The notes under the pieces: model-generated | Databases searched by the model: none | What the model saw: the letters and a program-made list of their open reading frames with translations, nothing else | Told to the model about the DNA's origin: nothing | Program-made: the position numbers and the translations under genes | Part shown: positions 1,515 through 43,399 of the stretch, one piece after another | How positions within the stretch are numbered: position 1 is the first letter of the stretch | Layout: every line of letters begins with the position of its first letter | Virus record (IMG/VR): IMGVR_UViG_3300002092_000056 | Span: 1-53,737 of that record | Source: a virus | Lineage: Duplodnaviria; Caudoviricetes | Length of the DNA stretch: 53,737 nucleotides | Strand: one strand, 5' to 3'

Positions 1515-3562
1515 CGAAGTCCTCTGCGCATGCTGTAGTGCAAGATGGTTGAATTGACAGTGAAGGGGGCGTAGATGTCTGAGATCGATGCGATACGCAC
1601 CGCAATGTTCTCAGCTGTGCCCATGATCTCCACCTCAGAAGGGGCCAGTGTGCGGCCATCCCAGACAAAGTTATCCCAGCTGATTGAGTCCCAATAGCTG
1701 GCCACAAGATTGCTGGAGTAGTTGGTGCCGATGTCCTGGCCAAGATCCGTTGATGAATAGCCCAGGTCGTAGCTGAACGTAAATTCAGCGTAACTGGTGC
1801 CCGAGATCTCCAAGGACCCTTTGCGGTATCGCTTCAAGATCCGAGGGCTGCGAATCGCGTTAAACACCAACGTGATGTTGGCCGCAATCTCAGCCCCGTC
1901 AAAAGAGGTTCCAGCGTCCAGGCGATAGACGAATCCGTTGGTAGACCCGAAGAAAGATGTTTCGGCGCCGTCAGGCGATTCGCCCTCACACACCACGGTC
2001 ACTGGATTGGGAAACTGCACGGGCATGGCGCCCAGCAAGTTGTTGTTTGAGATGGTCAGGTAGAGCGCGTAGCTGTCGCTGAAGAAAACCCGGTACTGGG
2101 CTTTCTCGCGGTTCAGGCTGCTGCCTACTGCCAGGTTGCGCCTTTGCTGAACAAACGGGCGGATGTTCAGCGTAATGGCCGCTGAATCGAAGTTGCCGTA
2201 GTTCAAAGTGGTTTGCAGGTTGATCACGCCCCGGTCGTCAAACACATAGCTCTGAGCCATGTTCTGGGCGGTGTAGGGCTTGGCGCCCGTGCCCACGTTG
2301 TATGACACCAGGCTCCAGTTGGCCGAGCTTGTGCCGTACAGAATGAACGTGTCGCTGTCCGTGTAGATCGCCATGGCGCCAGTGTTCTGATTACCTGGCT
2401 GGACCAAGAAGTTGGTCACGGCGTTGGTCAGCGCGATTTCGCCGGCGCCCAGGATCGGGCTCCACTGGTAGGGTAAACCCAGGCCCGAGAACTGAACGGA
2501 TTCGCTGAAAGCCAAAAACAAATGCTGTTTGTGGAAAGCGACTTTTGTGGGCACGTCGGTCGTCATGCCGGTGCGGATGTTCACATAAATCGTGCCGTCA
2601 AACTCAAACCCGTAATTGACGCTGTCACAGCCATAAACGCGGGTCTGGTTGGTGTTGCCACCAAAGTTGCCCATCGTCGTCTCTACGGTGCCATTTGGCG
2701 CCAGCGTGATGGCTGCCTGCGCGGCAACGGCGTGCGCGTAAGTCGTAGCGCCTATGCGCAAGTTTTCGCCGGCGGTAAAAGTCCCGGTGACGGAACTGAA
2801 CACCAGGTAGCCAGCAGCGGTATTGCTGGTCCAAATGCCGGATGCGTAAACCACGCGTTTGACTACGGCCGACGCGCCACTTGATTGGCCAACCAAAGTC
2901 ATGCCTTCGGTGATTTCGGTAGAACCGGTATTGAAGCCCATCTCATAACCGAGAGGAACCAAGGTCCAGCCGCTGGACGTCGACTTGTAAATGGCCATGG
3001 CTGTGCCGCCGGCGTTGTTGCGCCAGGCATAGGTCACGCCCTTGTAGTAAACGACGCCTCGGATTGAACCGCTGCCGGGCACGGCTGCAATGTCAGCCCG
3101 GTAAACGTCGGCCGCCAAGTTCAAGTAGGTTGCGGAATCTTTGTTGGTCGTGGTGACCGCGCCGCCCAAAGCGGTGACCGTGCCTTTGGCCACACCGCCG
3201 ACGCGGATGGTTTCGCCAACGGTAAACACGCCCGTGGCTTTGGTGAGGACCAGCTGACCCGTACTGGACACGATGACGTAGCCAGTTGCGCCGGAGGTTG
3301 CACCAACAATCGTATTGCTGACGTTCACGGCCGCAGACAAGCTGACCGTCAAGATGCTGTACAGGGCGTCAGAGGGGTTGGGCCGGCCATCAAAGCGTTC
3401 GTAGCCTGCAATGCGGGTGTAGCCGCCGGTGATCGACGCCTCAAAGTTGAGTGCGTCACGGGCGACCCCGGGGGCCAAAGAGAGGGTGGGGGTGACCAAA
3501 TCGAGACCGCCCGCCATGCGGATGATGTCGTACTTGACCTGAGCCATCGAAGGAGCTGCCAT
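1511..3562 (-). CDS. Tail nozzle/DNA stabilisation protein (P22 gp10/T7 gp12-like)
   Basis: About 683 aa, beta-rich, between adaptor and tail fibre; AAGGAG RBS before ATG 3562. Confidence 0.7.
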   Translation of the reverse strand: MAAPSMAQVKYDIIRMAGGLDLVTPTLSLAPGVARDALNFEASITGGYTRIAGYERFDGRPNPSDALYSILTVSLSAAVNVSNTIVGATSGATGYVIVSSTGQLVLTKATGVFTVGETIRVGGVAKGTVTALGGAVTTTNKDSATYLNLAADVYRADIAAVPGSGSIRGVVYYKGVTYAWRNNAGGTAMAIYKSTSSGWTLVPLGYEMGFNTGSTEITEGMTLVGQSSGASAVVKRVVYASGIWTSNTAAGYLVFSSVTGTFTAGENLRIGATTYAHAVAAQAAITLAPNGTVETTMGNFGGNTNQTRVYGCDSVNYGFEFDGTIYVNIRTGMTTDVPTKVAFHKQHLFLAFSESVQFSGLGLPYQWSPILGAGEIALTNAVTNFLVQPGNQNTGAMAIYTDSDTFILYGTSSANWSLVSYNVGTGAKPYTAQNMAQSYVFDDRGVINLQTTLNYGNFDSAAITLNIRPFVQQRRNLAVGSSLNREKAQYRVFFSDSYALYLTISNNNLLGAMPVQFPNPVTVVCEGESPDGAETSFFGSTNGFVYRLDAGTSFDGAEIAANITLVFNAIRSPRILKRYRKGSLEISGTSYAEFTFSYDLGYSSTDLGQDIGTNYSSNLVASYWDSISWDNFVWDGRTLAPSEVEIMGTAENIAVRIASISDIYAPFTVNSTILHYSMRRGLR

Positions 3563-28820: not shown

Positions 28821-28977
28821 TGCAGACGAATTTTATTCAGGCTTTAAAGACGCTCTCGACTTTCTTGGCATATCTTGGTCGGATAAACAGTTGGCCGACG
28901 TTTACATAGACGGAAACAAAATTGTATTTGAGCATGAAGGCCGGACCGCGACCATCGAGCTGAAAGAACAAGCATGA
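28813..28977 (+). CDS. 54-aa hypothetical protein
   Basis: MTDADEFYSGFKDALDFLGISW...; ATGA overlap with the polymerase gene. Confidence 0.55.
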   Translation: MTDADEFYSGFKDALDFLGISWSDKQLADVYIDGNKIVFEHEGRTATIELKEQA

Positions 28978-31058
28978 ACACCTTACGAATTGACCTTGAG
29001 ACCTACAGCGATGTAGACCTGCGCAAGTGCGGTGTGCACAAGTACGCTGCAAGCCCCAACTTTCAAATCATGTTGTTTGGTTTTAAGTACGGCGACGGCC
29101 CGGCGCGCGTGATCGATCTGATGGCCGGCGAGAAAATCCCCGCTCACATCGTCAGCGCTTTGTACGACCCCTCTGTGCAAAAGACCGCATACAACGCCGC
29201 ATTTGAGCTGACCTGTTTGAGCCGGCACTTCGATGAGCCCATGCCCGTCGAGCAGTGGCGCTGCACCAGCGTGCACGCCCTTTACCTGGGCATGCCCGGC
29301 AACCTGGCTGACGTCGGCAAGGTCGTCGGCTTGCCGCCAGAGAAGCAAAAGATGTCGATTGGCTGGACCCTGATTCGATACTTCTGCATACCTTGCAAAG
29401 CGACCAAGGTCAACGGCGGGCGCACACGCAACTTGCCTCATCACGACACGGCCAAGTGGAAGCTGTTCAAAGACTACTGCGCGGCCGACGTTGAGGCTGA
29501 GGCCGCCATCGCTGCCAAGATCGACAAGTTCCCAGTGCCCGGCAAAGAATGGGTCCTCTGGCATCTGGACCAGCGCATGATGAACCGGGGCGTGAAGGTT
29601 GACCGAGAGCTGGTCTATGCCGCGATTGAATGCGACACCATTTTCAAGGAGCGCTTGACCAATGAGGCCGTCAAGCTGACGGGGTTGGACAACCCCAACA
29701 GCCGAAACCAATTGATGGACTGGCTGAACGAAGAACTCAAAGAGGGCGAGGAGGCTATCACCGACGTCACCAAGAAGACCGTGCAGCGCATGCTGGGCGA
29801 GGCCCCCACCGAGGTCATCACCCGGGTGCTGCAGATCCGTCAGGAGCTGGCCAAGACCAGCGTGTCTAAGTTCCACGCGATGGCCAGGGCGATGGACGAC
29901 AACGACGATTGCGTGCGCGGGCTGACCCAGTTCTATGGCGCCAACCGCACAGGCCGATGGGCCGGCCGCATTGTGCAGGTGCAGAACCTGCCGCAGAACA
30001 AACTCAAGGACATCGACCTGGCGCGCAACCTGCTGAAGGCGCGCGAGTACGACCTGCTGGAGACTTTGTTTGGCAATGTGCCTGACACGCTCTCACAGCT
30101 CATCAGGACGGCGTTTGTTGCCCGGCCAGGGGCTAGGTTCATCCCTGTCGATTTCAGCGCCATTGAGGCCCGTGTGATTGCTTGGCTGGCATGGTGTGAG
30201 TGGCGCCTTGATGTGTTCAAAACACACGGCATGATTTATGAGGCCTCGGCCTCGGCCATGTTTAAGGTTCCGCTGGAGTCGATCCAGTACAAGGGCGCCG
30301 ACGGCAAGAAGCACAAGGGCGTGAACTATGCGCTTCGTCAAAAGGGCAAGATCTCCGAGCTGGCTTTAGGGTATCAAGGCGGAGCCGGCGCGCTCAAGAC
30401 CATGGGCGCACTGGAGATGGGGATCGCTGAGGATGAGCTGGACGGGATCAAGGATGCTTGGCGCGCGGCCAACCTAGAGATCTCCAGCTTTGACCACCGC
30501 AGCCCCGGGCTGTGGCTTAAATGCGATACCGCATCCAAGCAGGCGGTGGCCAGGCGCACCAGCGTGAAGGTGGATGTGGCCGGCGGCCGGGCGCATTTGG
30601 TGTTTGCTTTGGAGTCGGGCTTCTTGACGATCAAGCTACCATCGGGGCGCAAGCTGTACTACGTAAAACCACGTATCGAGGCTGAGGATTTGGTGCGCGA
30701 GAACAGCAAGACCGGCAAACCTTTTATGGTGGCCAGTGCCGGGTCGCTGACCTACGAAGGCCTGGACCAGAAGACCAAACAATGGACACGCCTGTCTACT
30801 TACGGCGGCAAGCTGGTGGAGAACATTACCCAGGCGATTGCCCGGGACTGCATGGCCGACTCGATGCTGGCGCTGGACGAAGAGGATTACGAACAGCTGT
30901 TCACCGTGCACGACGAAGACGTGCTGGAGATGCCGATTGGCACGGGCTCTCTGGCCGAGGCCGAAGAGATCATGGGCCGAGCCCTGCACTGGGCGCCAGG
31001 CCTGCCGCTGCGCGCCGATGGATTTGAAACACCTTATTACATGAAAGAGATCGACTGA
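28974..31058 (+). CDS. DNA polymerase, family A (phage type)
   Basis: Exonuclease DLETYS and YNAAFE; RTGRW; motif A DFSAIEAR, motif B RQKGKISELALGY, motif C VHDE. Confidence 0.95.
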   Translation: MNTLRIDLETYSDVDLRKCGVHKYAASPNFQIMLFGFKYGDGPARVIDLMAGEKIPAHIVSALYDPSVQKTAYNAAFELTCLSRHFDEPMPVEQWRCTSVHALYLGMPGNLADVGKVVGLPPEKQKMSIGWTLIRYFCIPCKATKVNGGRTRNLPHHDTAKWKLFKDYCAADVEAEAAIAAKIDKFPVPGKEWVLWHLDQRMMNRGVKVDRELVYAAIECDTIFKERLTNEAVKLTGLDNPNSRNQLMDWLNEELKEGEEAITDVTKKTVQRMLGEAPTEVITRVLQIRQELAKTSVSKFHAMARAMDDNDDCVRGLTQFYGANRTGRWAGRIVQVQNLPQNKLKDIDLARNLLKAREYDLLETLFGNVPDTLSQLIRTAFVARPGARFIPVDFSAIEARVIAWLAWCEWRLDVFKTHGMIYEASASAMFKVPLESIQYKGADGKKHKGVNYALRQKGKISELALGYQGGAGALKTMGALEMGIAEDELDGIKDAWRAANLEISSFDHRSPGLWLKCDTASKQAVARRTSVKVDVAGGRAHLVFALESGFLTIKLPSGRKLYYVKPRIEAEDLVRENSKTGKPFMVASAGSLTYEGLDQKTKQWTRLSTYGGKLVENITQAIARDCMADSMLALDEEDYEQLFTVHDEDVLEMPIGTGSLAEAEEIMGRALHWAPGLPLRADGFETPYYMKEID

Positions 31059-31507
31059 TGGACCACGAACAAACCCCTCGCAGCTGCTCCAATTGCAAGC
31101 ACGCCTTTGCTTCGCCTCTTGAGCAACCTTGCCAAAGCTGCTTGCCTCACCCTACACATGTGAATTGGGAGATAAGCGATCACCCTGTAGAAATGTTGGA
31201 TGAGATGCCCACGGCCGCGCCGGGGCGCAAGTTTGATGGCGACAAACGTGACTACACCTTGCTTCCATGGGATGCACTGGAAGAGATTGTAAAGGTGTTG
31301 GAGTTTGGCGCAAAGAAGTATGACCGGGACAACTGGAAACACGTCGACGACGCCCAGCACCGGTACACCAAAGCGGCGTTGCGCCACCTTGTTGCGCACA
31401 CCAAGGGCGAGGCCAACGACGCCGAGAGCGGGCTTTCACACTTGGCTCATCTTGGGTGCTGCGTTTTATTTTTACTTGCCTTGGAAAAAACAGATGACCA
31501 TCCGTGA
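31058..31507 (+). CDS. dATP/dGTP diphosphohydrolase domain protein (DUF5664-like)
   Basis: G.K.D..K....LLP, V..FGAKKY...NW, A..RH, D.ESGL.HLAH..C. Confidence 0.85.
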   Translation: MDHEQTPRSCSNCKHAFASPLEQPCQSCLPHPTHVNWEISDHPVEMLDEMPTAAPGRKFDGDKRDYTLLPWDALEEIVKVLEFGAKKYDRDNWKHVDDAQHRYTKAALRHLVAHTKGEANDAESGLSHLAHLGCCVLFLLALEKTDDHP

Positions 31508-31909: not shown

Positions 31910-34900
31910 TCAGTCCTTCTCGGATCCGCCGACGGTAAGTCCTTCTTTCAGGTTTTCCTTTTTCGTGCGCAGGCGTTCGACCAACTCGTCTGCACGCTTG
32001 GGCGTATAGAACCCGCGCCCCTCGCCCCGGTGCACAGCTTTAATCTGCTTGTCGATTTCGGCAATCAGTTTTTTGCGTTCGCTGTTTGCCATTTGTGCAG
32101 ACACATCCAGGTCAACCGGCCGCACCTTGATGCCGACCGTTTGCATGGCCGCGTACTTGGCTTGGACGGGCTGGCCCATCTTGTCGGTGCCGGTGTACTC
32201 GCGGAAATACAGATCGATGTCTTTGCCAGTGGCGTTGGCCAGCGCGTTCATCACGCGGTCAAAGTGGTAGTTGAACGGAGCCACCGCAGGCGCGGCCTGC
32301 TTGTATGCCCACTCTCCCCACTTCTGACTTTTCTCGGCCGCCGTGTCTAGCTTGGCGCTGACGACGTCCTTGGCCGTGAACAGATCCCGGTTGCCGAGCA
32401 AGGCTGACAAGGTTGAAAACACCGGGCTGTTTGGCGTAAGCCAAGACGGCAACGGCAGGCCACCGGTGTTGTTGACGAAGTCGCCCATGTCGCCGCCTGG
32501 GAACATGCGGCTGATGTCCAAGAACAAAGGCAAGCCAGTCAGCTCATCCATACCAAGGCGGATAACCTTGGGTGTGCCAAAAATGCTGAGGCCCTTTTGC
32601 CATTCAGGCAAATTCTTGCGCTCTTCTTTTTCCAGGCCGTTTGCTTTGGCGCGGAACTCGGGGTCCATGAGGTAGCGCTGGGCAAGCTTCCACCATTCGT
32701 CGTCGCCGTCTCCGCCGCTGGCGCCGGCCGCGATAGCGTAGCCCATGGCATTGACCGCAGCCAAAATGGCAGCCGGACCGGCAAACCGGTGCGGGTGCTC
32801 GGCCAGGGTTTGAGCAATTATGGGCATGGCCTTGTAGGACCATGAGAAAAACGGAATGCCGATTGGCGCATCGCGAATCGTGCGCGCGCCCTTGGGCAGG
32901 TCGTCGTATGTGAAGATGTATTTCTGCGCGTAGTCAACTGCATCATCGACTTCCAAACCACGCTGGCGCGCGTCGCGGTAAATGAGGTATCGGAAATACA
33001 AGTCTTCAGCCTCATACGCCACGGCCAAAGGTTTGCGCAAACCCAAGGACGCAATGTTCCAAGCCAGGTTGCCAAGCTTTGCAGCCTGACTTTCGGTTTT
33101 GCCGGCCAATACTTTGAGCTCATCGGGCAGCATGTTGACCAGCTCTTCTTGGTTGAAAGTGCCCAAGAACAAGCCCGCGTCTTTGGCTTCTTTGACCATG
33201 TCGGAGTTGCTGACCAGATCCTTCAAGGCGCCAAAGTATTTGTGGCCATCCCAATATGAGACCCCGGCAAAGTGCGCCATGGTCACGTTGGAAGCCACGT
33301 TGTTGACGTGAGCCACAGGGTTGAGAACGGTCTTGCCCTCTTTCCATTTTGACAAGCCGGCGCGGTACAGCTTGAGCAGCTCGCCTTGCATGGCTTCGTC
33401 GTTTGAGCTCAGCTGGTCGAGCACTTCCTGCGGCACCCACATGTCAGCCAGGGCGCCGTAGCGTTTGGCGTTGGTGTCTTCGACTTTGGTGGCCGGCACT
33501 TGAGCAAACCCAGGCTGCTCGGTGCGCGAGGCAAGATCGGATGCGATGCGCTCATACAGCCGGCCCAGGGCGATGTCGCGCTGGCTTCGGTTGTAACCCA
33601 TCACAAAGCGAAACATGGCGTCGCGAATCTCGCCCATGTTTTCGCGTTCGTCTTTGGTGTAATCGCGCCACACCATGATCACGTCATGCTTGGCCGAGTC
33701 AAACTTGGCGTCGCGAACTTCCCAGCCTTCGGCCAGCCAGTCATTGAGGTCTTCGACGTTGATTGTCTGGAACAAACCCCGGCTTTTGAGACTGGAGCCG
33801 CCGATACCTTGCATGGTTTTCTGGCGGCCAAGCAAAGCCTTGGCTGCTTTCACCCAGCCTGCGGCTTCAGACTTCAACGTCTGTTCATAAAAGCGCGGCA
33901 GATACTGGCCATCCCACCGGCCGGCGGCTTCTTTGGACAGCATGCCCAGGCGCACCAGCTCATTAGACTGCTCCGTCATCAAGGCCTGCATGGACGCGGC
34001 CAGCTCAAGCACGCGCTTGGGCGGAATCACACCAAAGGCAAGCTGGCCTTCAATGACGTCGCTGATCATTTGGCGTTCGTCTTCTGGCAGCTCTTGCAGG
34101 TTCTTGGCCACGTCGACTGTGAGGTTGCGAGCCTTGGCCACTTCAACTTTCATCTGACGCATGTAGCGCGACAGCTCAGGGCTGACGGGCTTGAGCGAAC
34201 CGATGAGGGGCGTCTTCTCCAAAAGGGTGTTGGCCACATCGCCAACATACCGGTAAGCCTTGGCGCCTGCGCCAAAACGGAACCGGCCCAGGGCGTCGCG
34301 GCTGACGATCCAGCCGTCTGATTCTCGGCCGACTTGTTTGTTGCTGAACGCGATTGGCGCGCCGGTAACATCTGTTTCGGTCTCGCTGAAGGTGGCATTC
34401 TTGGCCAGGACCAGGGGACCAATTTGAATTACCTCGTCGGCCTGCAGCACAGGGCGCATGGTATCGCGATCGTAAAAATAGCTGTGACGGAATGGATCCA
34501 TGCCGACCTGAGTCCAAGCCGGATCTTTCAAGGCAGCGTCTGCGCGCACTTGGGCGGCAGATACACTGATGGGTTTCCATTTCCCAAAAACTGTGGCAAT
34601 TGTGCCTTTGGCTGAGCCTGTTGCAATCTTGGCTGCAGCCTTTTGATTCATACCAAAGTAGGCGTCAGTGATCGCGGCCACGGACTCATAACCAACGACT
34701 TGGCCGGCGTCATACGCGGCTTGCACATTGGTGTTGGTGGACTTGGGCGTGTGCACACTGACAACCCAGGCGTCGTGGTTTTGATAGGACGGTATGTCCA
34801 GGCGCAGCTGGGCAAAGTCTCCGGCTTTCAATTCTTTGGACGGCAGGCCGTACTTGGCCGCCTTTTCAGAACTCTGACCCCGGCCTGTTTCCAAAGCGTA

Positions 34901-36145
34901 AATTGCTTCGGCTTTGGTGGTGATGGCCGGCACAGCAGCATAAGGGTAGACGGGGCGCAGCTCGTCCACCATGCGGTTGTATTCGTCCAGGGTGATTTTG
35001 CCTTCTTGCAGATCGGTTACGCCCTGTTGAAGCGCTTCGGTGCGTTTGAAACGATCGGCGCTTGTGCCCTCGACCCGGCTGGCGGCAGCGTTCTTTTGCT
35101 CTGCCCGGTTTACGGCGTATCCTGGTTGGCCAGGCTCATTCCGTTCTTGAACTGTTCCTTCACCGCTCGGTCGAACGCCTGCGCGTTTGCCCTCGCCTCC
35201 ATTTGTTTTGCTGGAGACATTGGCGCCCGTGGTCGAGTCGTAGACGGTTTGGCTGATCCAGCCTTCGGCAAGGGCTTTGTCTGTTTCATCTTTAAATTTC
35301 TCCAATAAACCTTCGCGAGTAACGGCGGGCACGTCGGCAAGCGTAGAAAACACGGCGTTGTTGTGGCCGCGCGAGTTGTCAATTACAGCGATTTTAAAAT
35401 CGGGGTTGCTGCCAAACGTCTCTTCGAGTTTGCGCACGACTTCGCTGGACCCGGCATGCCCCTTGGCCAAAGCGTCAAGAGGCACAGTGCGGCCCTTCTT
35501 CATGGCCCGGTCAAGCACGCCACCCTTTCGGTTGGCTAAGGCATCGACAGGTTCCCGATACACATAGGCTATGCGGACGCTCTGGTTGTTGTCAAGGGCA
35601 AGCTGGACATTCTTGACCGCCTTGTCGTAGTTTGACAACGTGCCGTCAAGGATTGTGTTTGCCCTGTCCATTTCGGCGCTGAGCAGGTGTTCGGCGCTGG
35701 ACTTACCTGCCCCACCACCGCCGGCCATAAAGACCACCAAGGCCCCGTCAGGTGCGTTGGCCATGCGTTTTTCAAACGATGTCTGGGTAAACTCGCTGGC
35801 GGCTTCGTGCACTTCAAAAGCACGGCTGCGATCTGCGCGGTATTCAGGCGACAGCTCACGCGCCTGGTCGGTATCTAGCAGCTTGCCGCCCTTGGTAGCA
35901 GGCAAAGAGCTGTACTCGCGCACGGCTGCGTCAAAGTCGGAAAAGATTTTTTGTCTCAGGCGGTCATCGAGATTGTCTTGCTTAAGGCTGAACGCAGGCG
36001 CGGCCCCGCCGGGCATCCGCGCAGCAAAGGATGGCAGCAGCTGCTTCAGGCCACCATCCAGCAAGAACGCTTTAAAGGCAGCCTGGCCGGTGATGACCTG
36101 ACGTCCGCCGTCAGCATTTGTGAAAGCGTAGGTACAGGTCGTCAT
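31910..36145 (-). CDS. Large polyvalent internal virion protein 2 (zeta-toxin-like kinase, unknown domain, C-terminal ejection-protein region)
   Basis: FMAGGGGAGKSS, ILDGTL, YVYREP, R...GRTVP; helical C-terminal region typical of podovirus ejection proteins. Confidence 0.85.
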   Translation of the reverse strand: MTTCTYAFTNADGGRQVITGQAAFKAFLLDGGLKQLLPSFAARMPGGAAPAFSLKQDNLDDRLRQKIFSDFDAAVREYSSLPATKGGKLLDTDQARELSPEYRADRSRAFEVHEAASEFTQTSFEKRMANAPDGALVVFMAGGGGAGKSSAEHLLSAEMDRANTILDGTLSNYDKAVKNVQLALDNNQSVRIAYVYREPVDALANRKGGVLDRAMKKGRTVPLDALAKGHAGSSEVVRKLEETFGSNPDFKIAVIDNSRGHNNAVFSTLADVPAVTREGLLEKFKDETDKALAEGWISQTVYDSTTGANVSSKTNGGEGKRAGVRPSGEGTVQERNEPGQPGYAVNRAEQKNAAASRVEGTSADRFKRTEALQQGVTDLQEGKITLDEYNRMVDELRPVYPYAAVPAITTKAEAIYALETGRGQSSEKAAKYGLPSKELKAGDFAQLRLDIPSYQNHDAWVVSVHTPKSTNTNVQAAYDAGQVVGYESVAAITDAYFGMNQKAAAKIATGSAKGTIATVFGKWKPISVSAAQVRADAALKDPAWTQVGMDPFRHSYFYDRDTMRPVLQADEVIQIGPLVLAKNATFSETETDVTGAPIAFSNKQVGRESDGWIVSRDALGRFRFGAGAKAYRYVGDVANTLLEKTPLIGSLKPVSPELSRYMRQMKVEVAKARNLTVDVAKNLQELPEDERQMISDVIEGQLAFGVIPPKRVLELAASMQALMTEQSNELVRLGMLSKEAAGRWDGQYLPRFYEQTLKSEAAGWVKAAKALLGRQKTMQGIGGSSLKSRGLFQTINVEDLNDWLAEGWEVRDAKFDSAKHDVIMVWRDYTKDERENMGEIRDAMFRFVMGYNRSQRDIALGRLYERIASDLASRTEQPGFAQVPATKVEDTNAKRYGALADMWVPQEVLDQLSSNDEAMQGELLKLYRAGLSKWKEGKTVLNPVAHVNNVASNVTMAHFAGVSYWDGHKYFGALKDLVSNSDMVKEAKDAGLFLGTFNQEELVNMLPDELKVLAGKTESQAAKLGNLAWNIASLGLRKPLAVAYEAEDLYFRYLIYRDARQRGLEVDDAVDYAQKYIFTYDDLPKGARTIRDAPIGIPFFSWSYKAMPIIAQTLAEHPHRFAGPAAILAAVNAMGYAIAAGASGGDGDDEWWKLAQRYLMDPEFRAKANGLEKEERKNLPEWQKGLSIFGTPKVIRLGMDELTGLPLFLDISRMFPGGDMGDFVNNTGGLPLPSWLTPNSPVFSTLSALLGNRDLFTAKDVVSAKLDTAAEKSQKWGEWAYKQAAPAVAPFNYHFDRVMNALANATGKDIDLYFREYTGTDKMGQPVQAKYAAMQTVGIKVRPVDLDVSAQMANSERKKLIAEIDKQIKAVHRGEGRGFYTPKRADELVERLRTKKENLKEGLTVGGSEKD
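35110..35289 (-). CDS. Overprinted +1-frame ORF (59 aa), candidate antitoxin for the zeta domain
   Basis: GGAG 10 nt before ATG; ends ...AQAFDRAVKEQFKNGMSLANQDTP; starts at the zeta domain C-terminus. Confidence 0.55.
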   Translation of the reverse strand: MKQTKPLPKAGSAKPSTTRPRAPMSPAKQMEARANAQAFDRAVKEQFKNGMSLANQDTP

Positions 36146-36149
36146 CGGT

Positions 36150-36647
36150 TTACTCTCCCAGCTCTTGGTCGATCAGGAGCATGCCGGCTTTGTCTTGGTC
36201 GACCAGCTCGATGCGGGCCAACAAATCGCCATACTCGCCAACGCTGGTGCGCTGGATCTCCAAGAACTGAAGCAAGAATTGCTGAACCACTGGGTCGCTG
36301 TCAGCCTGGGCGTACCACTTTTTGTAGTCGTTGTACAACTCCAGCTCGGTCTCGTAACCCAGCTCGATGGCGTCGCTTAGCGTTTTGATGGACTCGTTCA
36401 TGGCCTCGACCATGGGGATCTTGGCCTCTGTGCCGACGTCGTTTTGGAACTCGACGTGGCGCTGGTAGTGAGTCAACTCGTCAGCGCTCTCGTTCAAAAA
36501 GAACTTGGCGGCGCCAAAGTAGCCGATGCGCTGCAGCGCGTTGGCGATGTGCTTGTACAGGTTCGATGCGTACAGCTCCGAGTGAACGGCGTCGTCCAGC
36601 ATAGCCTTGTGCTCGGCCGAGATAATCATTTTTGGAAGCATGTGCAT
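36150..36647 (-). CDS. Ferritin
   Basis: ELYASNLY, G.AKFF..ES.DE..H, YETE, FL..FLEIQ, IDQEL; 165-aa four-helix pattern; AAGGA RBS. Confidence 0.88.
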   Translation of the reverse strand: MHMLPKMIISAEHKAMLDDAVHSELYASNLYKHIANALQRIGYFGAAKFFLNESADELTHYQRHVEFQNDVGTEAKIPMVEAMNESIKTLSDAIELGYETELELYNDYKKWYAQADSDPVVQQFLLQFLEIQRTSVGEYGDLLARIELVDQDKAGMLLIDQELGE

Positions 36648-36655
36648 GATGGTCC

Positions 36656-39600
36656 TTAGTCGCAGTTGATTTTAACCAGGCCGGAGTCATCCAGCTCGGC
36701 CAGAATGTCGAGAAAATTGTCTTGCACGAATTTAATTTGTGCGCCGTCCGGCCGTGAAGTAAACGCCGTCTCGGCTTTGGCCTTGGCCATGCCGCGTTTG
36801 TCTAGCCCGGCGAAAACTGATTCTAAATCTGGCGTTGCACCAGAAGCAAGCTGATCGCGCAGGCGCGCTACATCCTCGGTCTTTAATCCGAGGTTGCGAA
36901 TGTCTCCCGCCGAAAGGTTGGCAAGTTCTTGGAGGCTGTTGTAAGCCCGTCGGACCACAGGTGCTGCGTTATCAGCTCCTTGAATCCTTCCAGCCGGTCC
37001 ATTGTCACCGCCTGGGGCCCGTCCTTCTGCACCACGGAATGTATCGCGTTGTTCAGCAGGGTTACCTGTTGCGGCGCCAAAGTAATCTGGTCCGGTTGAA
37101 ACACCTGTCTCACCCGTGCGTACATAGCGTTCAATGACTGATTTTCTGTCGGCATCTTTTCCTTTCCAGCGCATGACCACCACATCAGGATAGCCATCCG
37201 CTTCTTTCCAACCGCCCTTGGCCCAGAAGGCTTTTAGGTCGGACAATTTATTTGCGTCGTAGTAGCTTGCGTCAAACGGGATCGTGCCGATTGTCTCGAA
37301 GCCAAACTGACCATACATTTGGGGCAAGAATCCGTCAGGGAAGCGCTTGCTTTTGACAGCAAACGCATCTAATACGGTGGCGCCCTCAGCGATGGCCTTT
37401 GTAATGATAGCAGGAGTTGCCACTCCTGACGCTCCCGGTTCGTTGTTTGTAACCGACACTACCTCAACTTCGTTGTCCTTTATTCCGTCGACCATGTCGG
37501 CGTACCAGGGCTTACCCCGCTTCAGGCCAAAGAAGATTTGGAGGTTCTTGTTGCCGCCCTCTTTACCAAGCTGGTAAATTTTGAACGACCCGTCCTTGAC
37601 GCCAGCCTTCACCTCGTCGGCGTCGTAAAGCGTCAGGGCCGCAGCTCCTTCATTGGCGCGCAGGGCATCAACGAACTCGGTGGTCGAGATGCCGCCGGTG
37701 GCTTTTGTCTTGCCGGATTCCAGCCACTGGTTGTTGGCCAAGGCCAGCGAGGCCTGAGCCTGGCGCGAGGACGTGATGTTTTCGTAGCCGCCTTCGCCCA
37801 GGGCATCGGCGATTTCCGAAGTAATTTCCTGAATGGGCAAAACCCGATCAAAGGCATACCAAGCGCCAACTTCTTTATTGGCCAGGGTAGGCACCTTATT
37901 ATCAAAGTAATCCCGGAAAATCAATTCGTAGTTGACGCCCTTGGCCAGCTTGCCGACAACGCGCCCACGCAAACCCAGAGGGTAAGAAGGGTGCATCTTT
38001 GTACCAGCCTCGCCCAGCTTTACCGTTGGGTTTGTCTTGTCGATCTCGATCACCAGCATGGTGTCGCCCTGACGGTATCCGGCGTATTCAAGGTCCAAGG
38101 TCTCCCGACGAAAACGGTCCAGGTTGGGCAGGCCCAAAGCCTGCGCCTGTTTCGTCTCCAGCATCTTGGCCAAGGCCCCGCGCTGGTCGAAGGACAGACC
38201 GTCGATGTAGCCGAGAATGCCGGGGCTTTCAAACCCGGGGAAGTCGGGCAACGAGTTTTTGTTTTCCGAGGACTGGACGATTTTGTCGAGCGCCAGCAGG
38301 TTGTCCGGGGTGATGCGCTTGTCCCGCAGGTAGGCTTCAACCGTCTGGATGTAGGCCTGCGACACGGTGGCGTTGGTCAGGTGGCTGTTGTCGTTCATGG
38401 CGTGCACGAGGACGTAGTCCGACTCGTTCACCTTGGCCATGATCTTGGAAAGGGTCGCGCCCCCGCGCACCGCCCACACCACGTTGGCCTTTGTGTTTTC
38501 CGGAAGGCGAACAAAGTTCGGACCGCCCAGCATCTCAACCGGGAACTCCAGTTGGCTGCCGTCGATTCCGGTGTAGCTGATACCCGCTGTGGTCAGGTCC
38601 GCCTTGATCCCCATAACCCGTTTCCCGATTAGGTCACGGATGGTGATGGTGGGGATGCTGGTGAGGTTGCGTTGCTTGGCAGAAAACTTGATGCCGTTAA
38701 GCTCAAGCTCGGTACTTGTTTTCGTTACAGGGACGGGGCCTTGTCGTTCTTGATTTCTCGCACCAACTGCGCCGCCAACCTGAAGGCCTCCTCCCGTTCC
38801 GCGTCCGTGGTAGGCGCGTAAGGCTGCAATGGTGTCTGCTCTTGCTTCAAGGATTTTGTCATAGCTCTCCACCTTTGCCGGGTCGGTGCCCAGGCGTACT
38901 TGGTTAAAGGCCCACAGTGCGGCTTGCACTTGGCGGGGTTCCCATTCTAGCCGAGCGGCAATGATTTTAATCCGCTCTTTGGCAGAGGCGATCTGCCGTG
39001 GGTTGGGCGTCTTCGTGTTGAAGAACAACATGGCAATGTGGCGGTCTACTGCAATGGCGTCAACGTCGCCCTCGTTTGCCTGGCCGTATTGCGAAATTTT
39101 TGCACCCGCAAGTTTTTCATCATTGGCAATGCGGTCCAAGTTTTTAATAACCGCAGGCAGATACCCCGTAAAGGGTCGGCCAGACAGCAGCTGGTCATAC
39201 GCTTTTAACGCCAAGGTGACGTTGCCTTTGACGCCGGTCGCCTGGCTTGTTGCCGAAAGTAATTTTTGAAAAAGGTTTGAATCTTCGCCAAACGTATCAA
39301 CAATTGTTTTTTCGTGTCGGGTATACCAAGTGCGCCAAGAGCTCTGCGAATCAGCGGCGGCGACCAGCTCTTCAATGCTTCGACGGATCCGGCCTTCAGC
39401 CACGGTCTTTTGTTTTGCGCTGAAGCGCACATCGCTGCCAATCCTGGCCAACTCGACGTTGGCGGCTTCGGTCTGCCCGGCCGGAATTTGCAAATTGCCC
39501 ATGCGGACCTGGGCGCCGGGGATGTTTGTCACGTCGATGGCATTGGCTTCGCGTGAGAGTAAACCCTTAGTCAGCGTGGTGGGCGCGGCGACCTGGGGCG

Positions 39601-42600
39601 CGGCAGCAGCCAGGGGTTGTCCGATGGCGCGCACCGGCACGGCCTTGTGCTTTTGGCCAAGCAGCACGACTGCCGATTGATTGTTGCCGAACGGTGCCAT
39701 GTAGCCGTCAAAGCCGGCATTGATCACAGCCGACTCAAACGCGTTGGCGTCGACCTGGGGTTTGATCAGGCGGGATGCTGGGTCGTAGATGTTGTTGAGC
39801 TGAACTTCATGGGCGTGGCCACCAACGCCAGATTCTGGCCGAATGCCGGCGCCCTGGTCGGCGTAGAAGTAGACCCGATTTTTCAGACGCGGGTCTGTGC
39901 TGGCATCCAGACGTGTGGCCTCGGCGCCCTTCAGTCCTCGGCCGTAGTAAGCCCCGCTCAGCGACTGACGGGGAGTTGTTGAGTAATGTCGGCCGACAAC
40001 GGAGACGGCGCCCTCACGGGCTGTACCGTAGCTGGGGATCTCACCGCCCCCACCGAGTGCAGGTATTTGTCCAGCTGTGCCTGCAAGGCCTGGTGCGACT
40101 TCACCTCCTGGGGTGACATTGATTCGTTCATTTGTTTCTCCTTGCTGCTGACTGAAAGCCAGGGGCGCGGTTGCTGGGGCAGACTGTTGAAGTGTGCCGT
40201 TGCGGAACGCCACCATGGCATCACGCGCAACCATCTTAGCTTGATTTAGGTCTTTCAGGTAGCTATCTACCTTGACCGATTCCAGTTCAGTTTTGTCTTT
40301 GACGCCGCGCAACCGGACCAGCATGTTGTCCAAAATGCCAATCCACTTTTGCACGAAACCGCCAAAACCCTTGGGGTCTGCCTTGGCCAGGTCGGCCAGG
40401 AATGTCCGATCCGTGGCGCGGTTGCCCATGAAGTCGGCCGCCATTTCTGAACGCAAAGTCTGGCCAGAAAGAAGTTGCTGTAAGCGTTGTTCCCGCGCAA
40501 CAGGGTCGGCGATGCGGGCTAGTTCTTTCTTGTGCAAAAAGTTTTCAGCGTATGAGCGCTTGCCCGCTTCGGACATATCGTCAAACAAACTGTGAATCGA
40601 TGACACATATTGCTGCGCCGGTGTGTCAGTGCGCCCGGCCTGAGTATCCGCTTCTGCAATACGCTCGGCAATGTGAAAGTTTTCGTGAAAAGCTGTGGGC
40701 GCAATACCTTTTTGAGTTTTGGTATTTATTGCAATTGCGCCGCCCAGTTCAAAACCGTCTGCGCCATTGGGATCAGCATAGGCCACCACGGGGCCTGTGA
40801 CGCCAAGGGCTTTGCCTATGGCGGTGACTGCGGCTTCATCCGATTTTGCGGGCGCGGCAAGGGTTGGGACCGCGACGTTGTGTTGAGCCGCAGTTTCGTC
40901 TAGCCTGGCTTGGAGATCGGCACGGGCCGTGTCTCCAGTTCCCGTAACAGGGGCGTTAGACACCCGCCCTTGGGCGGCGCCCAAACCGAAATTGGTTTCG
41001 GGGGCTGCAGGAGCCACGGCACTTGGCGGCTTGGGGGTGAAAGTGATTGAGCCATCGTCGTTCTCCGTTTGATCAAACTCGCGCGCCAGTGTACGCCGAT
41101 CGCCCAGACGCATCTGCCCCAGCTCAGCCGGAGTCATGGTTTTAACGGCCACAGGAGGCGCTTCAACCACTGGGGTAGGCGCTGCTATGGGCGCGGCTTC
41201 GATCGGGGCTACAGCGGGCGCCTGCTCAGCCTGGCGGGCAGTCAGCTCAATGGCTGCACCGCGCCGGGTCATCGCGTGAACGGACTCGTCATTGACGATC
41301 TCAGTCAGCTTGTCGTCAGTAAGATTCGCAACAGGTTCGCCTTGAATGCTTTGAGGACGGGGTGCATTCAGGCGCAGCTTGTCTAGGCCAAACAGTTTCT
41401 CGGTCTCGGGGTTAACCGCTGGCAACGGGGCCGGGGCTGGCGCAGCAGGCAAGCCGGGAACCGGTGGCAGCTCGGTCAGGATAGCGGGGGCTGGCGCAGC
41501 AGGCAAGCCGGGGATAGGCGGCAGCTCGGTTGGCGCCGTGACCTCGGGCAGAGTAGGCGCGGCAGCGGTTGGGGGAACAATGGTGTTTGGGACCAAAAGC
41601 TCATCCACTGAGCCAGCCATCAGGTTGGCGGCGGCGACCACATCTTCGGCCGAGGTTGCTTTGCCAAACGCTTGCCCGGCCTGCGCCATCTTGGCAGTCT
41701 GCTGCGGCGTGATGATGTTGGCGTCATACGACTGAACATCAAGCAGGCGGCGGGCGACTACGTCAGCCGGAGCGGCATATTGGGCGCCGGCTACGTCTTG
41801 CGCAAAGGCTCCACCAAAAGCGCCAGCGCCGCCTTGAAAAGCTTTGACCGTTTGAGGGATGGCCAATGGGCCTTGCATAAAAGCGCCCAGTACGGCGGCA
41901 TCCGTGACTTGGTCAAGTAAGCCAACATTTTTTCCTTCGACAAATTTGTCAACGCCGTTTTGAAAAATTTGCGTAGTGGCTTCTTCAATCGATCCGGCCA
42001 CGGCCTGAGCGGTAACGACTTTACCGGTTGCAGCCAGGGCTCGACCAACAGATTGAACCGTCGGTGCTTGCAAGCTCAGAGGCAATTTACTCAGCGCAGA
42101 AAAGCTGTGATCAAAAATTCCAAGGGTGGCTTTTTCTCCCAGAATTTCAGCTCCGCCTTTGAGCACGGCGGCCAAAGAACTGTCGCCTTCGCCATAGGCT
42201 TGGCCGGCGGTTTGAGCGCCCATGGCTGGAAGCATGAACGGCCGAGTGACGGGCGCCAAGGCAGCAATAAAATTGCCAACCATTTGCGGAGCTTGTGCAG
42301 TTAAGTTGAGGCCAAGCCAAGAAGCAAATTCGCCTTTGGATACGGCACTAGCCAGGTTTTGTTTTCCGGCTTCCGGCATTGCGCTTTTGGCGCTGACGGC
42401 AAGGCGATCTGCCCAGTCATAAGTAGGTGCCCGGACATTGAAACCTTCAGGCTCAAGCTGTCCGCCAGAAAGCAGGTTGACTGTTTTCGCGGCAAAGTCG
42501 ACCATGGTCGGAATGGCGTTGGCCAAGCCGGACACGATTTGACCAGAGCCAGAAGCCAAGGCGCCAAGAACAGGGTTCTCTTTGGCAAAGGCTTCGGCGC

Positions 42601-43399
42601 TTAAATCTTGACTGGCCAAATTGATTTTGTCGGCCATGGCCGCCAAGCCGGTATCCGCTTGGACCACACCCCGTGTGGCTTCATCCAAGCGCAAAGCTTT
42701 GTCGACGCGCTGGCTTTCGGGTATGTCTTCTCTGACGTCAAAAGGTTTCTGAGAAACGTCTGGAAAAGTAACAAGAGCAGGGGCTTCTGTGCCAAGCTTC
42801 TTGATGCTTGGAGCTGTGCGAGCGGCGTTCGCGATAAGGCCAATCATGCCTTCGCGGCCCTGACTCAAATCTTTGTTGCGAACGTCTTCGGCTTGGACAT
42901 CAGCCAAAAGCCGTTGCGCGGCCTGCGCTTGAGCGTCAGTGCCATTTGCCATTTCAGACAAAGCGTCGCGACGTTTCTCGGCAGGCAGATTGGCAAAGCT
43001 GCTGCGCACCGAGTCGATGTATTCCTGGCGCAGCATACCGCCAGGTTTGCCCAAGCGTTCTTCTTGGTACGCTCGGGTTGCTTGAGGCGTATTCAGCACC
43101 GACTTGACGGACGGCGCGGGCTCCATGCCATAGGGCATTTCAGCGCCGCCCAGGGCGTTGCCCATGGCGTCGGTGTACTCGGCTGCAGCTGGCGGGGTTT
43201 CAGCCCTGGCCACGGGCGCAGCCTCTGGCGGGCGTACATAAGCAGACGCGGGCGCAGAGCCACGGCCTCCGCCAGCCTCTGATGGTTTTACGCCTTCAGG
43301 AAGTTCGCGCCTTGCAGCGTCTTCAACCGCATACCCGGACCACCAATTGTCTTTTGACTCGGTCGCCGGAGCGTAGGATTCCCACCAGTCTTTTGCCAT
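36656..43399 (-). CDS. Large polyvalent internal virion protein 1 (HExxH peptidase, ART-like, HhH glycosylase-like, unknown and GNAT domains)
   Basis: HENFH...E.AAD; HYS...YGRG...RVYFY...GFDG; WY..LLSATS...VDRH...QVQAALW; LDAF...LPQMYGQFGF...PDVVVM. Confidence 0.85.
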   Translation of the reverse strand: MAKDWWESYAPATESKDNWWSGYAVEDAARRELPEGVKPSEAGGGRGSAPASAYVRPPEAAPVARAETPPAAAEYTDAMGNALGGAEMPYGMEPAPSVKSVLNTPQATRAYQEERLGKPGGMLRQEYIDSVRSSFANLPAEKRRDALSEMANGTDAQAQAAQRLLADVQAEDVRNKDLSQGREGMIGLIANAARTAPSIKKLGTEAPALVTFPDVSQKPFDVREDIPESQRVDKALRLDEATRGVVQADTGLAAMADKINLASQDLSAEAFAKENPVLGALASGSGQIVSGLANAIPTMVDFAAKTVNLLSGGQLEPEGFNVRAPTYDWADRLAVSAKSAMPEAGKQNLASAVSKGEFASWLGLNLTAQAPQMVGNFIAALAPVTRPFMLPAMGAQTAGQAYGEGDSSLAAVLKGGAEILGEKATLGIFDHSFSALSKLPLSLQAPTVQSVGRALAATGKVVTAQAVAGSIEEATTQIFQNGVDKFVEGKNVGLLDQVTDAAVLGAFMQGPLAIPQTVKAFQGGAGAFGGAFAQDVAGAQYAAPADVVARRLLDVQSYDANIITPQQTAKMAQAGQAFGKATSAEDVVAAANLMAGSVDELLVPNTIVPPTAAAPTLPEVTAPTELPPIPGLPAAPAPAILTELPPVPGLPAAPAPAPLPAVNPETEKLFGLDKLRLNAPRPQSIQGEPVANLTDDKLTEIVNDESVHAMTRRGAAIELTARQAEQAPAVAPIEAAPIAAPTPVVEAPPVAVKTMTPAELGQMRLGDRRTLAREFDQTENDDGSITFTPKPPSAVAPAAPETNFGLGAAQGRVSNAPVTGTGDTARADLQARLDETAAQHNVAVPTLAAPAKSDEAAVTAIGKALGVTGPVVAYADPNGADGFELGGAIAINTKTQKGIAPTAFHENFHIAERIAEADTQAGRTDTPAQQYVSSIHSLFDDMSEAGKRSYAENFLHKKELARIADPVAREQRLQQLLSGQTLRSEMAADFMGNRATDRTFLADLAKADPKGFGGFVQKWIGILDNMLVRLRGVKDKTELESVKVDSYLKDLNQAKMVARDAMVAFRNGTLQQSAPATAPLAFSQQQGETNERINVTPGGEVAPGLAGTAGQIPALGGGGEIPSYGTAREGAVSVVGRHYSTTPRQSLSGAYYGRGLKGAEATRLDASTDPRLKNRVYFYADQGAGIRPESGVGGHAHEVQLNNIYDPASRLIKPQVDANAFESAVINAGFDGYMAPFGNNQSAVVLLGQKHKAVPVRAIGQPLAAAAPQVAAPTTLTKGLLSREANAIDVTNIPGAQVRMGNLQIPAGQTEAANVELARIGSDVRFSAKQKTVAEGRIRRSIEELVAAADSQSSWRTWYTRHEKTIVDTFGEDSNLFQKLLSATSQATGVKGNVTLALKAYDQLLSGRPFTGYLPAVIKNLDRIANDEKLAGAKISQYGQANEGDVDAIAVDRHIAMLFFNTKTPNPRQIASAKERIKIIAARLEWEPRQVQAALWAFNQVRLGTDPAKVESYDKILEARADTIAALRAYHGRGTGGGLQVGGAVGARNQERQGPVPVTKTSTELELNGIKFSAKQRNLTSIPTITIRDLIGKRVMGIKADLTTAGISYTGIDGSQLEFPVEMLGGPNFVRLPENTKANVVWAVRGGATLSKIMAKVNESDYVLVHAMNDNSHLTNATVSQAYIQTVEAYLRDKRITPDNLLALDKIVQSSENKNSLPDFPGFESPGILGYIDGLSFDQRGALAKMLETKQAQALGLPNLDRFRRETLDLEYAGYRQGDTMLVIEIDKTNPTVKLGEAGTKMHPSYPLGLRGRVVGKLAKGVNYELIFRDYFDNKVPTLANKEVGAWYAFDRVLPIQEITSEIADALGEGGYENITSSRQAQASLALANNQWLESGKTKATGGISTTEFVDALRANEGAAALTLYDADEVKAGVKDGSFKIYQLGKEGGNKNLQIFFGLKRGKPWYADMVDGIKDNEVEVVSVTNNEPGASGVATPAIITKAIAEGATVLDAFAVKSKRFPDGFLPQMYGQFGFETIGTIPFDASYYDANKLSDLKAFWAKGGWKEADGYPDVVVMRWKGKDADRKSVIERYVRTGETGVSTGPDYFGAATGNPAEQRDTFRGAEGRAPGGDNGPAGRIQGADNAAPVVRRAYNSLQELANLSAGDIRNLGLKTEDVARLRDQLASGATPDLESVFAGLDKRGMAKAKAETAFTSRPDGAQIKFVQDNFLDILAELDDSGLVKINCD
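36883..37155 (-). CDS. Overprinted +1-frame ORF (90 aa) after the GNAT domain, candidate immunity protein
   Basis: AAAGGAAAAG-ATG; MPTENQSLNAMYARVRQVF...LEGFKELITQHLW. Confidence 0.55.
   Translation of the reverse strand: MPTENQSLNAMYARVRQVFQPDQITLAPQQVTLLNNAIHSVVQKDGPQAVTMDRLEGFKELITQHLWSDGLTTASKNLPTFRRETFATSD
38725..38862 (-). CDS. Overprinted +1-frame ORF (45 aa) after the HhH-like domain, candidate immunity protein
   Basis: AGGTGGAGAGCT-ATG; MTKSLKQEQTPLQPYAPTTDAEREEAFRLAAQLVREIKNDKAPSL. Confidence 0.55.
   Translation of the reverse strand: MTKSLKQEQTPLQPYAPTTDAEREEAFRLAAQLVREIKNDKAPSL
39958..40131 (-). CDS. Overprinted +1-frame ORF (57 aa) before the ART-like domain, candidate immunity protein
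   Basis: AAGGAG-AAACAA-ATG; MNESMSPQEVKSHQALQAQLDKYLHSVGAV... Confidence 0.55.
   Translation of the reverse strand: MNESMSPQEVKSHQALQAQLDKYLHSVGAVRSPATVQPVRAPSPLSADITQQLPVSR
41433..41530 (-). repeat. Intragenic tandem duplication (54-nt period)
   Basis: TELPP(I/V)PGLPAAPAPA twice; ggggctggcgcagcaggcaagccggg twice. Confidence 0.8.

Follow-up and report, generated by a model that had tools for sequence, protein, structure and literature searches.

Does a toxin-like kinase that forms one module of a very large phage protein bring along its own small partner, encoded in a second frame of the same DNA? The question is raised by a phage record of IMG/VR, IMGVR_UViG_3300002092_000056, whose 53,737 bases (hereafter the window, i.e., the whole stretch that was analysed) have an estimated completeness of 98%. 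One of its genes encodes a protein of 1411 amino acids (aa). A reading of the letters made without database searches (the sequence-only reading) had recognised zeta-toxin-like kinase motifs near the N-terminus of this protein and, overprinted on its codons, a 59-aa open reading frame (ORF) said to resemble small helical proteins encoded downstream of bacterial zeta-like ATPases. The ORF lies in the +1 frame relative to the kinase, and its product ends in ...AFDRAVKEQFKNGMSLANQDTP, five residues past the end quoted in that reading. The answer reached here is that the nested ORF is a conserved companion of zeta-type kinases and not a product of chance, occupying the same position of the alignment in about 85 phage and 10 bacterial loci, and that the hidden peptide probably binds and controls the kinase.

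Conservation of the nested reading frame

What sets the nested ORF beyond chance is its conservation in relatives, and not its length or its openness. At all 86 viral loci whose alignment reaches codon 286 of the main frame (kinase identity 35-72%), the +1 frame is open at the aligned place, over 52-170 codons from stop to stop. Of the 75 distinct contexts that remain once duplicates are removed, 62 have an ATG that aligns to codon 0 or -1, as do 23 of the 32 clusters obtained at 70% identity. The main-frame dipeptide that is read across this ATG is of ten kinds (DA, NA, NE, DE, HE, HA, DV, YA, YE, and YD), but its first codon is invariably NAT and its second always begins with G; in other parts of these ORFs, the same residues are encoded by NAT in only 490 of 1631 cases. 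A Shine-Dalgarno-like sequence (GGAG, GAGG, or AGGA) precedes the ATG by 5-16 nucleotides (nt) in 37 of 45 unique start contexts, its background frequency in the same ORFs being 7.8%; the window has such a motif as well (Table 1).

The small ORF occurs in two arrangements. In 40 loci the kinase either stands alone or is the C-terminal part of its protein, and the kinase stop falls 22-31 codons past the ATG, the small ORF extending for about 30 codons further. The distance from the end of the small ORF to the start of the next gene is -8 to +30 nt in 31 of 38 loci, frequently with an ATGA overlap, and this start sits 80-102 nt from the kinase stop. The main frame instead continues in 35 loci, of which the window is one, by 100 to more than 1100 codons, with the small ORF fully nested; these embedded hosts are full ORFs of 1403-1597 aa or open-ended frames of up to 2241 aa. 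The likeness to small downstream genes, which the sequence-only reading gave from recall, is borne out in that the stand-alone kinases carry the ORF as a conventional downstream gene, and homologues of the peptide do accompany zeta kinases.

A hidden Markov model (HMM) was built solely from the non-overlapped tails of the stand-alone and C-terminal type (35 unique sequences), and was then run over 4749 six-frame pieces taken from the 35 embedded loci; the nested ORF supplied the top seven matches, and nine of the top ten (E 2.6e-4 to 5). The start and stop of the nested ORF are retained in relatives with reordered modules, and the ORF is retained in nine metagenome loci, including a relative that is 93-94% identical, and in all 10 bacterial genome loci whose alignment reaches the site, where kinase identity goes down to 27%. 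The bacterial loci are labelled Aquiluna, Methylovorus, Porphyrobacter, Luteibacter, Sulfuritalea, Acidimicrobiaceae, and Acidobacteriaceae, and most of their peptides have a tail motif of the type NL-x-(R/H)-N. The clade that includes the window has the tail motif F-K-x-G-x-S-L-A ... T-P, and a wider group has L-N-x-x-V; the "PST" stretch that is common to both is imposed by the overlap.

Selection on the nested frame was assessed within the window clade, from 12 unique 59-codon sequences without insertions or deletions, giving 66 pairs. Over nested codons 25-59, the +1 frame had a mean identity of 0.60, compared with 0.41 for the main frame and 0.40 for the +2 frame, and each of the 66 pairs had a higher value in the +1 than in the main frame; in an upstream control of 60 codons, the main frame stood at 0.65 and the +1 frame at 0.42. 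The variability of main-frame third positions was 0.55-0.63 within the kinase domain, 0.405 in the overlap, and 0.70 past the nested stop. Of the codon positions, the third is the most variable inside the domain and the least variable in the overlap, an inversion also given by a five-sequence version of this comparison. These sequence comparisons indicate that the nested ORF is under purifying selection in its own frame and, with its conserved start, stop, and frame, is a real gene.

The 1411-aa gene contains seven same-strand ORFs of at least 59 aa that start with ATG in an alternative frame, the longest being 134 aa and the nested ORF the shortest, whereas codon-shuffled versions of the gene contain 2.2 +/- 1.2. 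Of the seven, only the 59-aa ORF was compared across relatives.

The nested ORF is seldom present in annotation. A profile search of 5.8 billion protein clusters returned only nine peptide-like proteins, 55-65 aa in length and "hypothetical" or unnamed. In the GenBank record MW202577.1 (locus L113), an 878-aa coding sequence (758..3394) is labelled thymidylate kinase, and its C-terminal end is a zeta-like module; a 40-aa +1-frame ORF with the motif (3375..3497) overlaps this coding sequence and is unannotated in the record. Nine predicted proteins among 5.8 billion clusters and none annotated in MW202577.1 imply that gene callers miss a whole small-protein family.

The kinase, the peptide, and their predicted contacts

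The zeta-toxin-type kinase at the N-terminus of the 1411-aa protein is borne out, above chance, by family, sequence, and fold. Pfam Zeta_toxin (PF06414) matches the protein with E 7.1e-14 and 52.1 bits, against a cut-off of 22.3, and a six-frame search of the record also placed PF06414 at 35387..35665 and 35660..35740. The motifs that had been listed from the letters (AGGGGAGKSS, DGTL, YVYREP, and R213 followed by GRTVP) all exist as described (Table 1). By sequence, the only solved relative found is ng_zeta1 of Neisseria gonorrhoeae (6eph; E 5.5e-8 over query residues 71-263). An AlphaFold2 (AF2) model of the kinase, made from a 20-sequence alignment (A1), has a mean pLDDT of 88.6, and exceeds 90 across most of residues 60-310. 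Foldseek gave ng_zeta1 chains at ranks 1-6 (E 7e-13 to 1e-11, TMq 0.62-0.64; 6eph_B had E 7e-13 and TMq 0.63), and after these the streptococcal zeta and PezT structures 1gvn, 2p5t, and 3q8x (E 1e-4 to 3e-4, TMq only 0.31-0.37), followed by a weak match to AvrRxo1 (4z8q; E 1.3e-3, TMq 0.37).

The residues expected of such an enzyme are in place. Passages of the ng_zeta1 paper (PMC5923241) describe Asp56 as the catalytic base, the K115A mutant as inactive, and Arg175 and Arg181 as neutralising phosphates; the catalytic Asp, D67 in zeta and D56 in ng_zeta1, deprotonates the sugar hydroxyl. The ng_zeta1 residues D56, K115, R175, and R181 align with D93, K148, R213, and R219 of the phage module, and all four are invariant or nearly so in A1. 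G142, G143, G145, G147, and K148 of the P-loop are invariant in 20 of 20 sequences, and so are D93 and R96. The Asp of DGTL (D167), which was among the motifs first noted, is invariant too, yet it is not the aligned catalytic base; in the ng_zeta1 alignment that is D93, upstream of the P-loop. Because the catalytic residues align, the module is best read as an ng_zeta1-type zeta kinase with what appears to be an intact catalytic set.

The peptide, in contrast to the kinase, belongs to no named family among those searched. Forty-three peptides compared with Pfam and PHROGs gave scattered single matches only (E at least 0.0012) and no family, and the peptide had no match in NCBIfam or PADLOC; a profile search of the PDB yielded no similar chain (best E 2.2), and the ESM Atlas held nothing usable for it. 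Modelled alone by AF2, the peptide is irregular over residues 1-25 and helical over residues 26-50, with a pLDDT of 75.7.

A complex of the two was predicted, with a 20-row alignment for kinase residues 47-312 and one of 43 rows for the peptide. The ipSAE score, which expresses the confidence of the model, was 0.82 in three runs, as against 0.01 for the best control; the mark for this score is passed by 58 of 80 solved complexes and by 2 of 110 mismatched pairs, counts that apply here only approximately because the prediction was made with custom alignments. Agreement between the runs extends to at least 83% of contacts, with a partner pLDDT of 67 or higher. On the side of the peptide, the predicted interface comprises residues 20-54; on that of the kinase, it comprises residues 133-138, 146-147 of the P-loop, one side of helix alpha1 (150-162), strands 189-197 and 249-257, and the loop 259-266. 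The earlier suggestion that the peptide would bind and neutralise the kinase domain is thus supported in silico for binding. Neutralisation is another matter: the contacts lie partly over the nucleotide site and partly on the sheet face, and an interface of this kind would suit a structural subunit no less than an inhibitor.

Known relatives and the possible role of the peptide

The best sequence and fold match to the phage module is the ng_epsilon1/ng_zeta1 pair (6EPG/6EPH/6EPI). Both share a "rewired" order in which the catalytic Asp comes before the P-loop, and the control of ng_zeta1 is exerted by a small non-globular peptide that sits on the kinase surface in a 1:1 complex, as described in passages of PMC5923241. 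The phage module differs in having only about 20% identity and no OB domain, and ng_epsilon1 is a separate gene, whereas the phage partner overlaps the kinase 3' end in the +1 frame. The streptococcal epsilon/zeta and PezAT systems (1GVN, 2P5T, 3Q8X) have in common with the phage pair the Zeta_toxin family, the P-loop phosphotransferase fold, and a small helical partner; epsilon itself is described as a three-helix bundle in a 2:2 heterotetramer with zeta (in passages of PMC5923241). AvrRxo1-ORF1 and its partner ORF2 (Arc1) of Xanthomonas (4Z8Q and related structures) again form a zeta-like kinase with a small partner, like the phage pair; no sequence similarity of the nested peptide to this partner was found. 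Gene order varies among these systems: ng_epsilon1 lies upstream of ng_zeta1, and the epsilon and PezA antitoxin genes lie upstream of their toxin genes, whereas the Arc1 gene is downstream of the AvrRxo1 kinase gene, separate from and not overlapping it.

The explanation we prefer, which we consider moderately probable, is that the window encodes a polyvalent protein with a zeta kinase and an overprinted small partner gene that most likely restrains this kinase. Kinase and partner would have begun as an old two-gene cassette in which the start of the partner lay inside the kinase 3' end, and fusion of the kinase to downstream modules would have left the partner overprinted on the last helix of the module and the linker, over which the main frame may be only weakly constrained. 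From its own Shine-Dalgarno site and ATG, a 59-aa peptide would be made, irregular in its N-terminal half and ending in an amphipathic helix, and this would bind along helix alpha1, the P-loop edge, and one sheet face of the kinase module. The pairs epsilon/zeta, epsilon1/zeta1, and AvrRxo1/Arc1 suggest by analogy that it would act as an inhibitor and restrain the kinase in the producing cell. Action of the free kinase would then be confined to places that lack the partner, such as the next host after ejection, a site suggested because the protein is encoded among tail and internal-protein genes; its target is probably a UDP-sugar or a similar cell-wall precursor.

The same contacts could be those of an obligate structural or activating subunit, whose helix completes the alpha/beta/alpha sandwich of the kinase and inhibits nothing. 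They fall on alternate residues of three strands (136/138, 189-197, 249-257) and on one side of helix alpha1, which together make up a sheet face, and kinase and small ORF are retained together in every architecture. An obligate subunit nevertheless seems unlikely to us: the AF2 monomer has pLDDT above 95 at the contact strands without the peptide, the interface includes 146-147 of the P-loop and the loop 257-266 past strand 4, and the nearest solved relative is inhibited by a non-globular surface peptide (passages of PMC5923241). A different product altogether would result from programmed +1 ribosomal frameshifting, namely a short kinase isoform with an alternative C-terminal helix and no separate peptide. 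The ORF does lie exactly at the module end, from where the helix could pack in cis on the predicted face, and Shine-Dalgarno-like motifs can stimulate frameshifting. We judge frameshifting highly improbable in view of the start contexts, in which the ATG is kept at the same codon (62 of 75) despite varying main-frame residues, +1-frame stops occur 1-10 codons upstream of the ATG in most loci, and the spacing of the Shine-Dalgarno motif suits initiation; inspection of these contexts by eye, without a formal scan, found no common slippery motif.

It could also be that the ORF is not expressed in the window phage, that its openness follows from the linker residues, and that its conservation reflects a nucleotide-level element or the relic of an ancestral gene that lay downstream. 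Resampling of synonymous codons in the main frame leaves the +1 frame open in 72% of trials for the window, and the median probability of an open frame was 0.69 when the same was done for 34 fully nested loci. Since the main-frame residues already predict an open +1 frame, openness alone is no evidence; with seven comparable ORFs in the gene and these resampling values, both the length and the openness of the ORF were rejected as evidence. The resampling value of the window, the seven ORFs, and the lack of any family or name for the peptide speak in favour of an unexpressed relic. Such a relic is nonetheless very unlikely, given that +1 identity exceeds that of the main frame in every pair, that main-frame third positions vary least in the overlap, that both the ATG and the Shine-Dalgarno motif are retained, and that start and stop survive module reordering.

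Besides the resampling values, several observations weigh against a restraining partner gene as the explanation, and should be set beside it. Of the 75 start contexts, 13 lack an ATG at the aligned codon. The tail HMM had no match to the ORF of the window itself, nine peptides with divergent tails were excluded from the tail motif alignment, and an hhalign comparison of the window-clade tails with the "LN" tails was not significant (E 0.042, probability 1.3%, with a reversed control at 0.014). Because the tail profiles are not significantly alike, the two peptide groups are treated as one family on the grounds of their matching length, position, and start context. Neither epsilon nor PezA shows any detectable similarity to the peptide, and the genes are arranged differently, the gene upstream of the phage kinase being ferritin-like and the phage partner being downstream, overlapping, and unrelated. 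Much of the predicted interface (136, 138, 189-197, 249-257) is sheet face and not catalytic cleft, and the binding score, itself a measure of model confidence, may have been passed by likeness, as a similar complex (epsilon1/zeta1, 6EPG) has been solved. In ng_zeta1, Lys59 and Asn75 hold the carboxyethyl group of UDP-MurNAc (UNAM), according to passages of PMC5923241; K59 aligns with R96, so that the phage module has an Arg there, and N75 falls in a three-residue gap of the query, because of which the substrate of the phage kinase may differ from that of ng_zeta1. Finally, packaging and delivery of the 1411-aa protein are inferred from gene position only, the gene sharing its strand and its block with those for the tail, the M15 peptidase, and the other giant proteins.

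Zeta kinases with small partners are already known, and zeta-like modules have been noted before as parts of polyvalent proteins of phages. Iyer et al. 2017 (PMC5512222) report zeta-toxin-like kinases in polyvalent proteins and MuF fusions, and propose that such kinases weaken the cell wall and thereby aid DNA entry; from the passages concerned, the window protein, with its shuffled modules, fits their polyvalent class. Those passages mention no partner gene, and the word "overlapping" occurs zero times in the main text, a statement that does not extend to the supplementary architecture files. No description of an overlapping partner gene for zeta-type kinases was found in the literature, and a partner gene of an unrelated family that lies within the kinase's own codons appears to be undescribed. 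The new element is thus a partner gene missed by annotation, in the +1 frame of the kinase 3' end, which persists inside proteins of 1000 to more than 2000 residues. As an example of a conserved gene that is overprinted in double-stranded DNA phages, it is clear and open to testing, and it suggests that the effectors of polyvalent proteins can bring their own regulators. A bolder extension, possible but in our view doubtful, is that this is a family-wide, unannotated immunity gene overprinted on zeta-type kinases. The phage would produce kinase and inhibitor jointly from a single piece of DNA and package the kinase within a giant protein that is ejected; passage through the tail would strip the non-covalently bound inhibitor from the kinase, which would become active only in the next host. 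The bacterial cassettes (in Acidobacteria, Actinobacteria, and Proteobacteria) would on this view belong to a family of toxin-antitoxin systems that has gone unrecognised and whose antitoxin is read from the codons of the toxin.

The 1411-aa protein and its genomic setting

Table 1. Features of the locus and of neighbouring genes, numbered by position in the window
Feature	Position	Strand	Basis or remark
Gene for 1411-aa multi-module (polyvalent-type) protein	31910..36145	-	Single open frame
N-terminal 46 residues, beta-hairpin and short helices	36008..36145	-	Conserved in relatives
Zeta-toxin-type kinase module, residues 47-312	35210..36007	-	PF06414, structure matches
D93 codon, aligned with catalytic Asp56 of ng_zeta1	35867..35869	-	Alignment only
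Motif AGGGGAGKSS, residues 141-150	35696..35725	-	
P-loop G142-S149 (GGGGAGKS)	35699..35722	-	Invariance in A1; alignment to 6eph and 6epg (K115A mutant)
Motif DGTL, residues 167-170	35636..35647	-	
Motif YVYREP, residues 193-198	35552..35569	-	
Motif GRTVP, residues 218-222	35480..35494	-	
Shine-Dalgarno-like motif GGAG	35300..35303	-	10 nt upstream of nested ATG, within kinase coding sequence
Nested +1-frame ORF, 59 aa plus stop	35110..35289	-	Conserved in relatives; over main codons 286-346
L5 gp82-like domain (PF25735), residues 478-573	34427..34714	-	Pfam, phrog_586
C-terminal ~816 residues, family unassigned	31913..34360	-	Conserved in relatives
165-aa ferritin-like protein	36150..36647	-	PF00210, phrog_16594
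2247-aa protein	36656..43399	-	HENFH (HExxH) stretch in translation
PolA	28974..31058		
MazZ-type diphosphohydrolase N-terminal domain	31058..31507	+	PF18909

The 1411-aa protein is a phage polyvalent protein, consisting of several unrelated effector-type modules whose order varies among relatives. Those relatives are 57-94% identical to it, with the module order shuffled. In the AF2 model, the 46-residue leader has strands at residues 5-9 and 15-19 and a helix at 21-42 (pLDDT 71-88), and it stays N-terminal in relatives whichever module comes next; in L008 there is an insertion following the first 49 residues. The same leader, of about 46 residues, heads the ORFs of L003, L004, L005, L006, and L008, in which the ORF start lies within the locus; L007 is 5'-truncated. 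The L5 gp82-like domain (Pfam E 3.1e-6 and 27.5 bits, with a cut-off of 27; phrog_586 E 7.7e-7) follows the kinase module in the window, but precedes it in L005 (4669..9459), L006 (3301..8091), and L007. The C-terminal ~816 residues have 59% identity in relatives and 22% identity to hypothetical proteins in Helicobacter pullorum phage records; they had no match in the PDB or NCBIfam. When 1.84 billion representative proteins were scanned in full, 2208 representative relatives of the kinase module came up (E <= 1e-3); among the 150 matches listed, the module is located at positions from 1 to about 3485, in host proteins of 256-4597 aa.

At the DNA level, a comparison with known phages gave no match to the window. 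Its packaging and head genes encode a large terminase, an SU10-type portal and adaptor, and a capsid protein, and among its other genes are those for a family A DNA polymerase, a VapE-type primase, an SNF2 helicase, a DUF2800 protein, and an M15 peptidase. Allowing for the arbitrary ends of the record, the packaging and head genes come first on the minus strand, followed by the tail genes and then by the very large genes (1028, 2247, and 1411 aa), and the 1411-aa gene is the last of the block that holds the tail, M15 peptidase, and giant-protein genes. The setting is different in L047 and L042, where stand-alone cassettes of kinase and small ORF lie amid small genes and methyltransferases, directly upstream of terminase genes (GP3_package, Terminase_6N/6C).

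Directly upstream of the 1411-aa gene in the series of giant genes is that for the 2247-aa protein, which has no family above threshold in Pfam, PHROGs, or NCBIfam. Its HENFH stretch may mark a peptidase module of the zincin type within a second polyvalent protein. Between the two giant genes lies the gene for a ferritin-like protein (PF00210 E 4.4e-17), an unusual neighbour within a block of virion genes. The whole record contains no homologue of PurZ or adenylosuccinate synthetase and, there being none, no sign of a full 2-aminoadenine (Z-base) pathway; adjoining PolA, however, is a gene with the N-terminal domain of a MazZ-type dATP/dGTP diphosphohydrolase (PF18909 E 1.4e-31).

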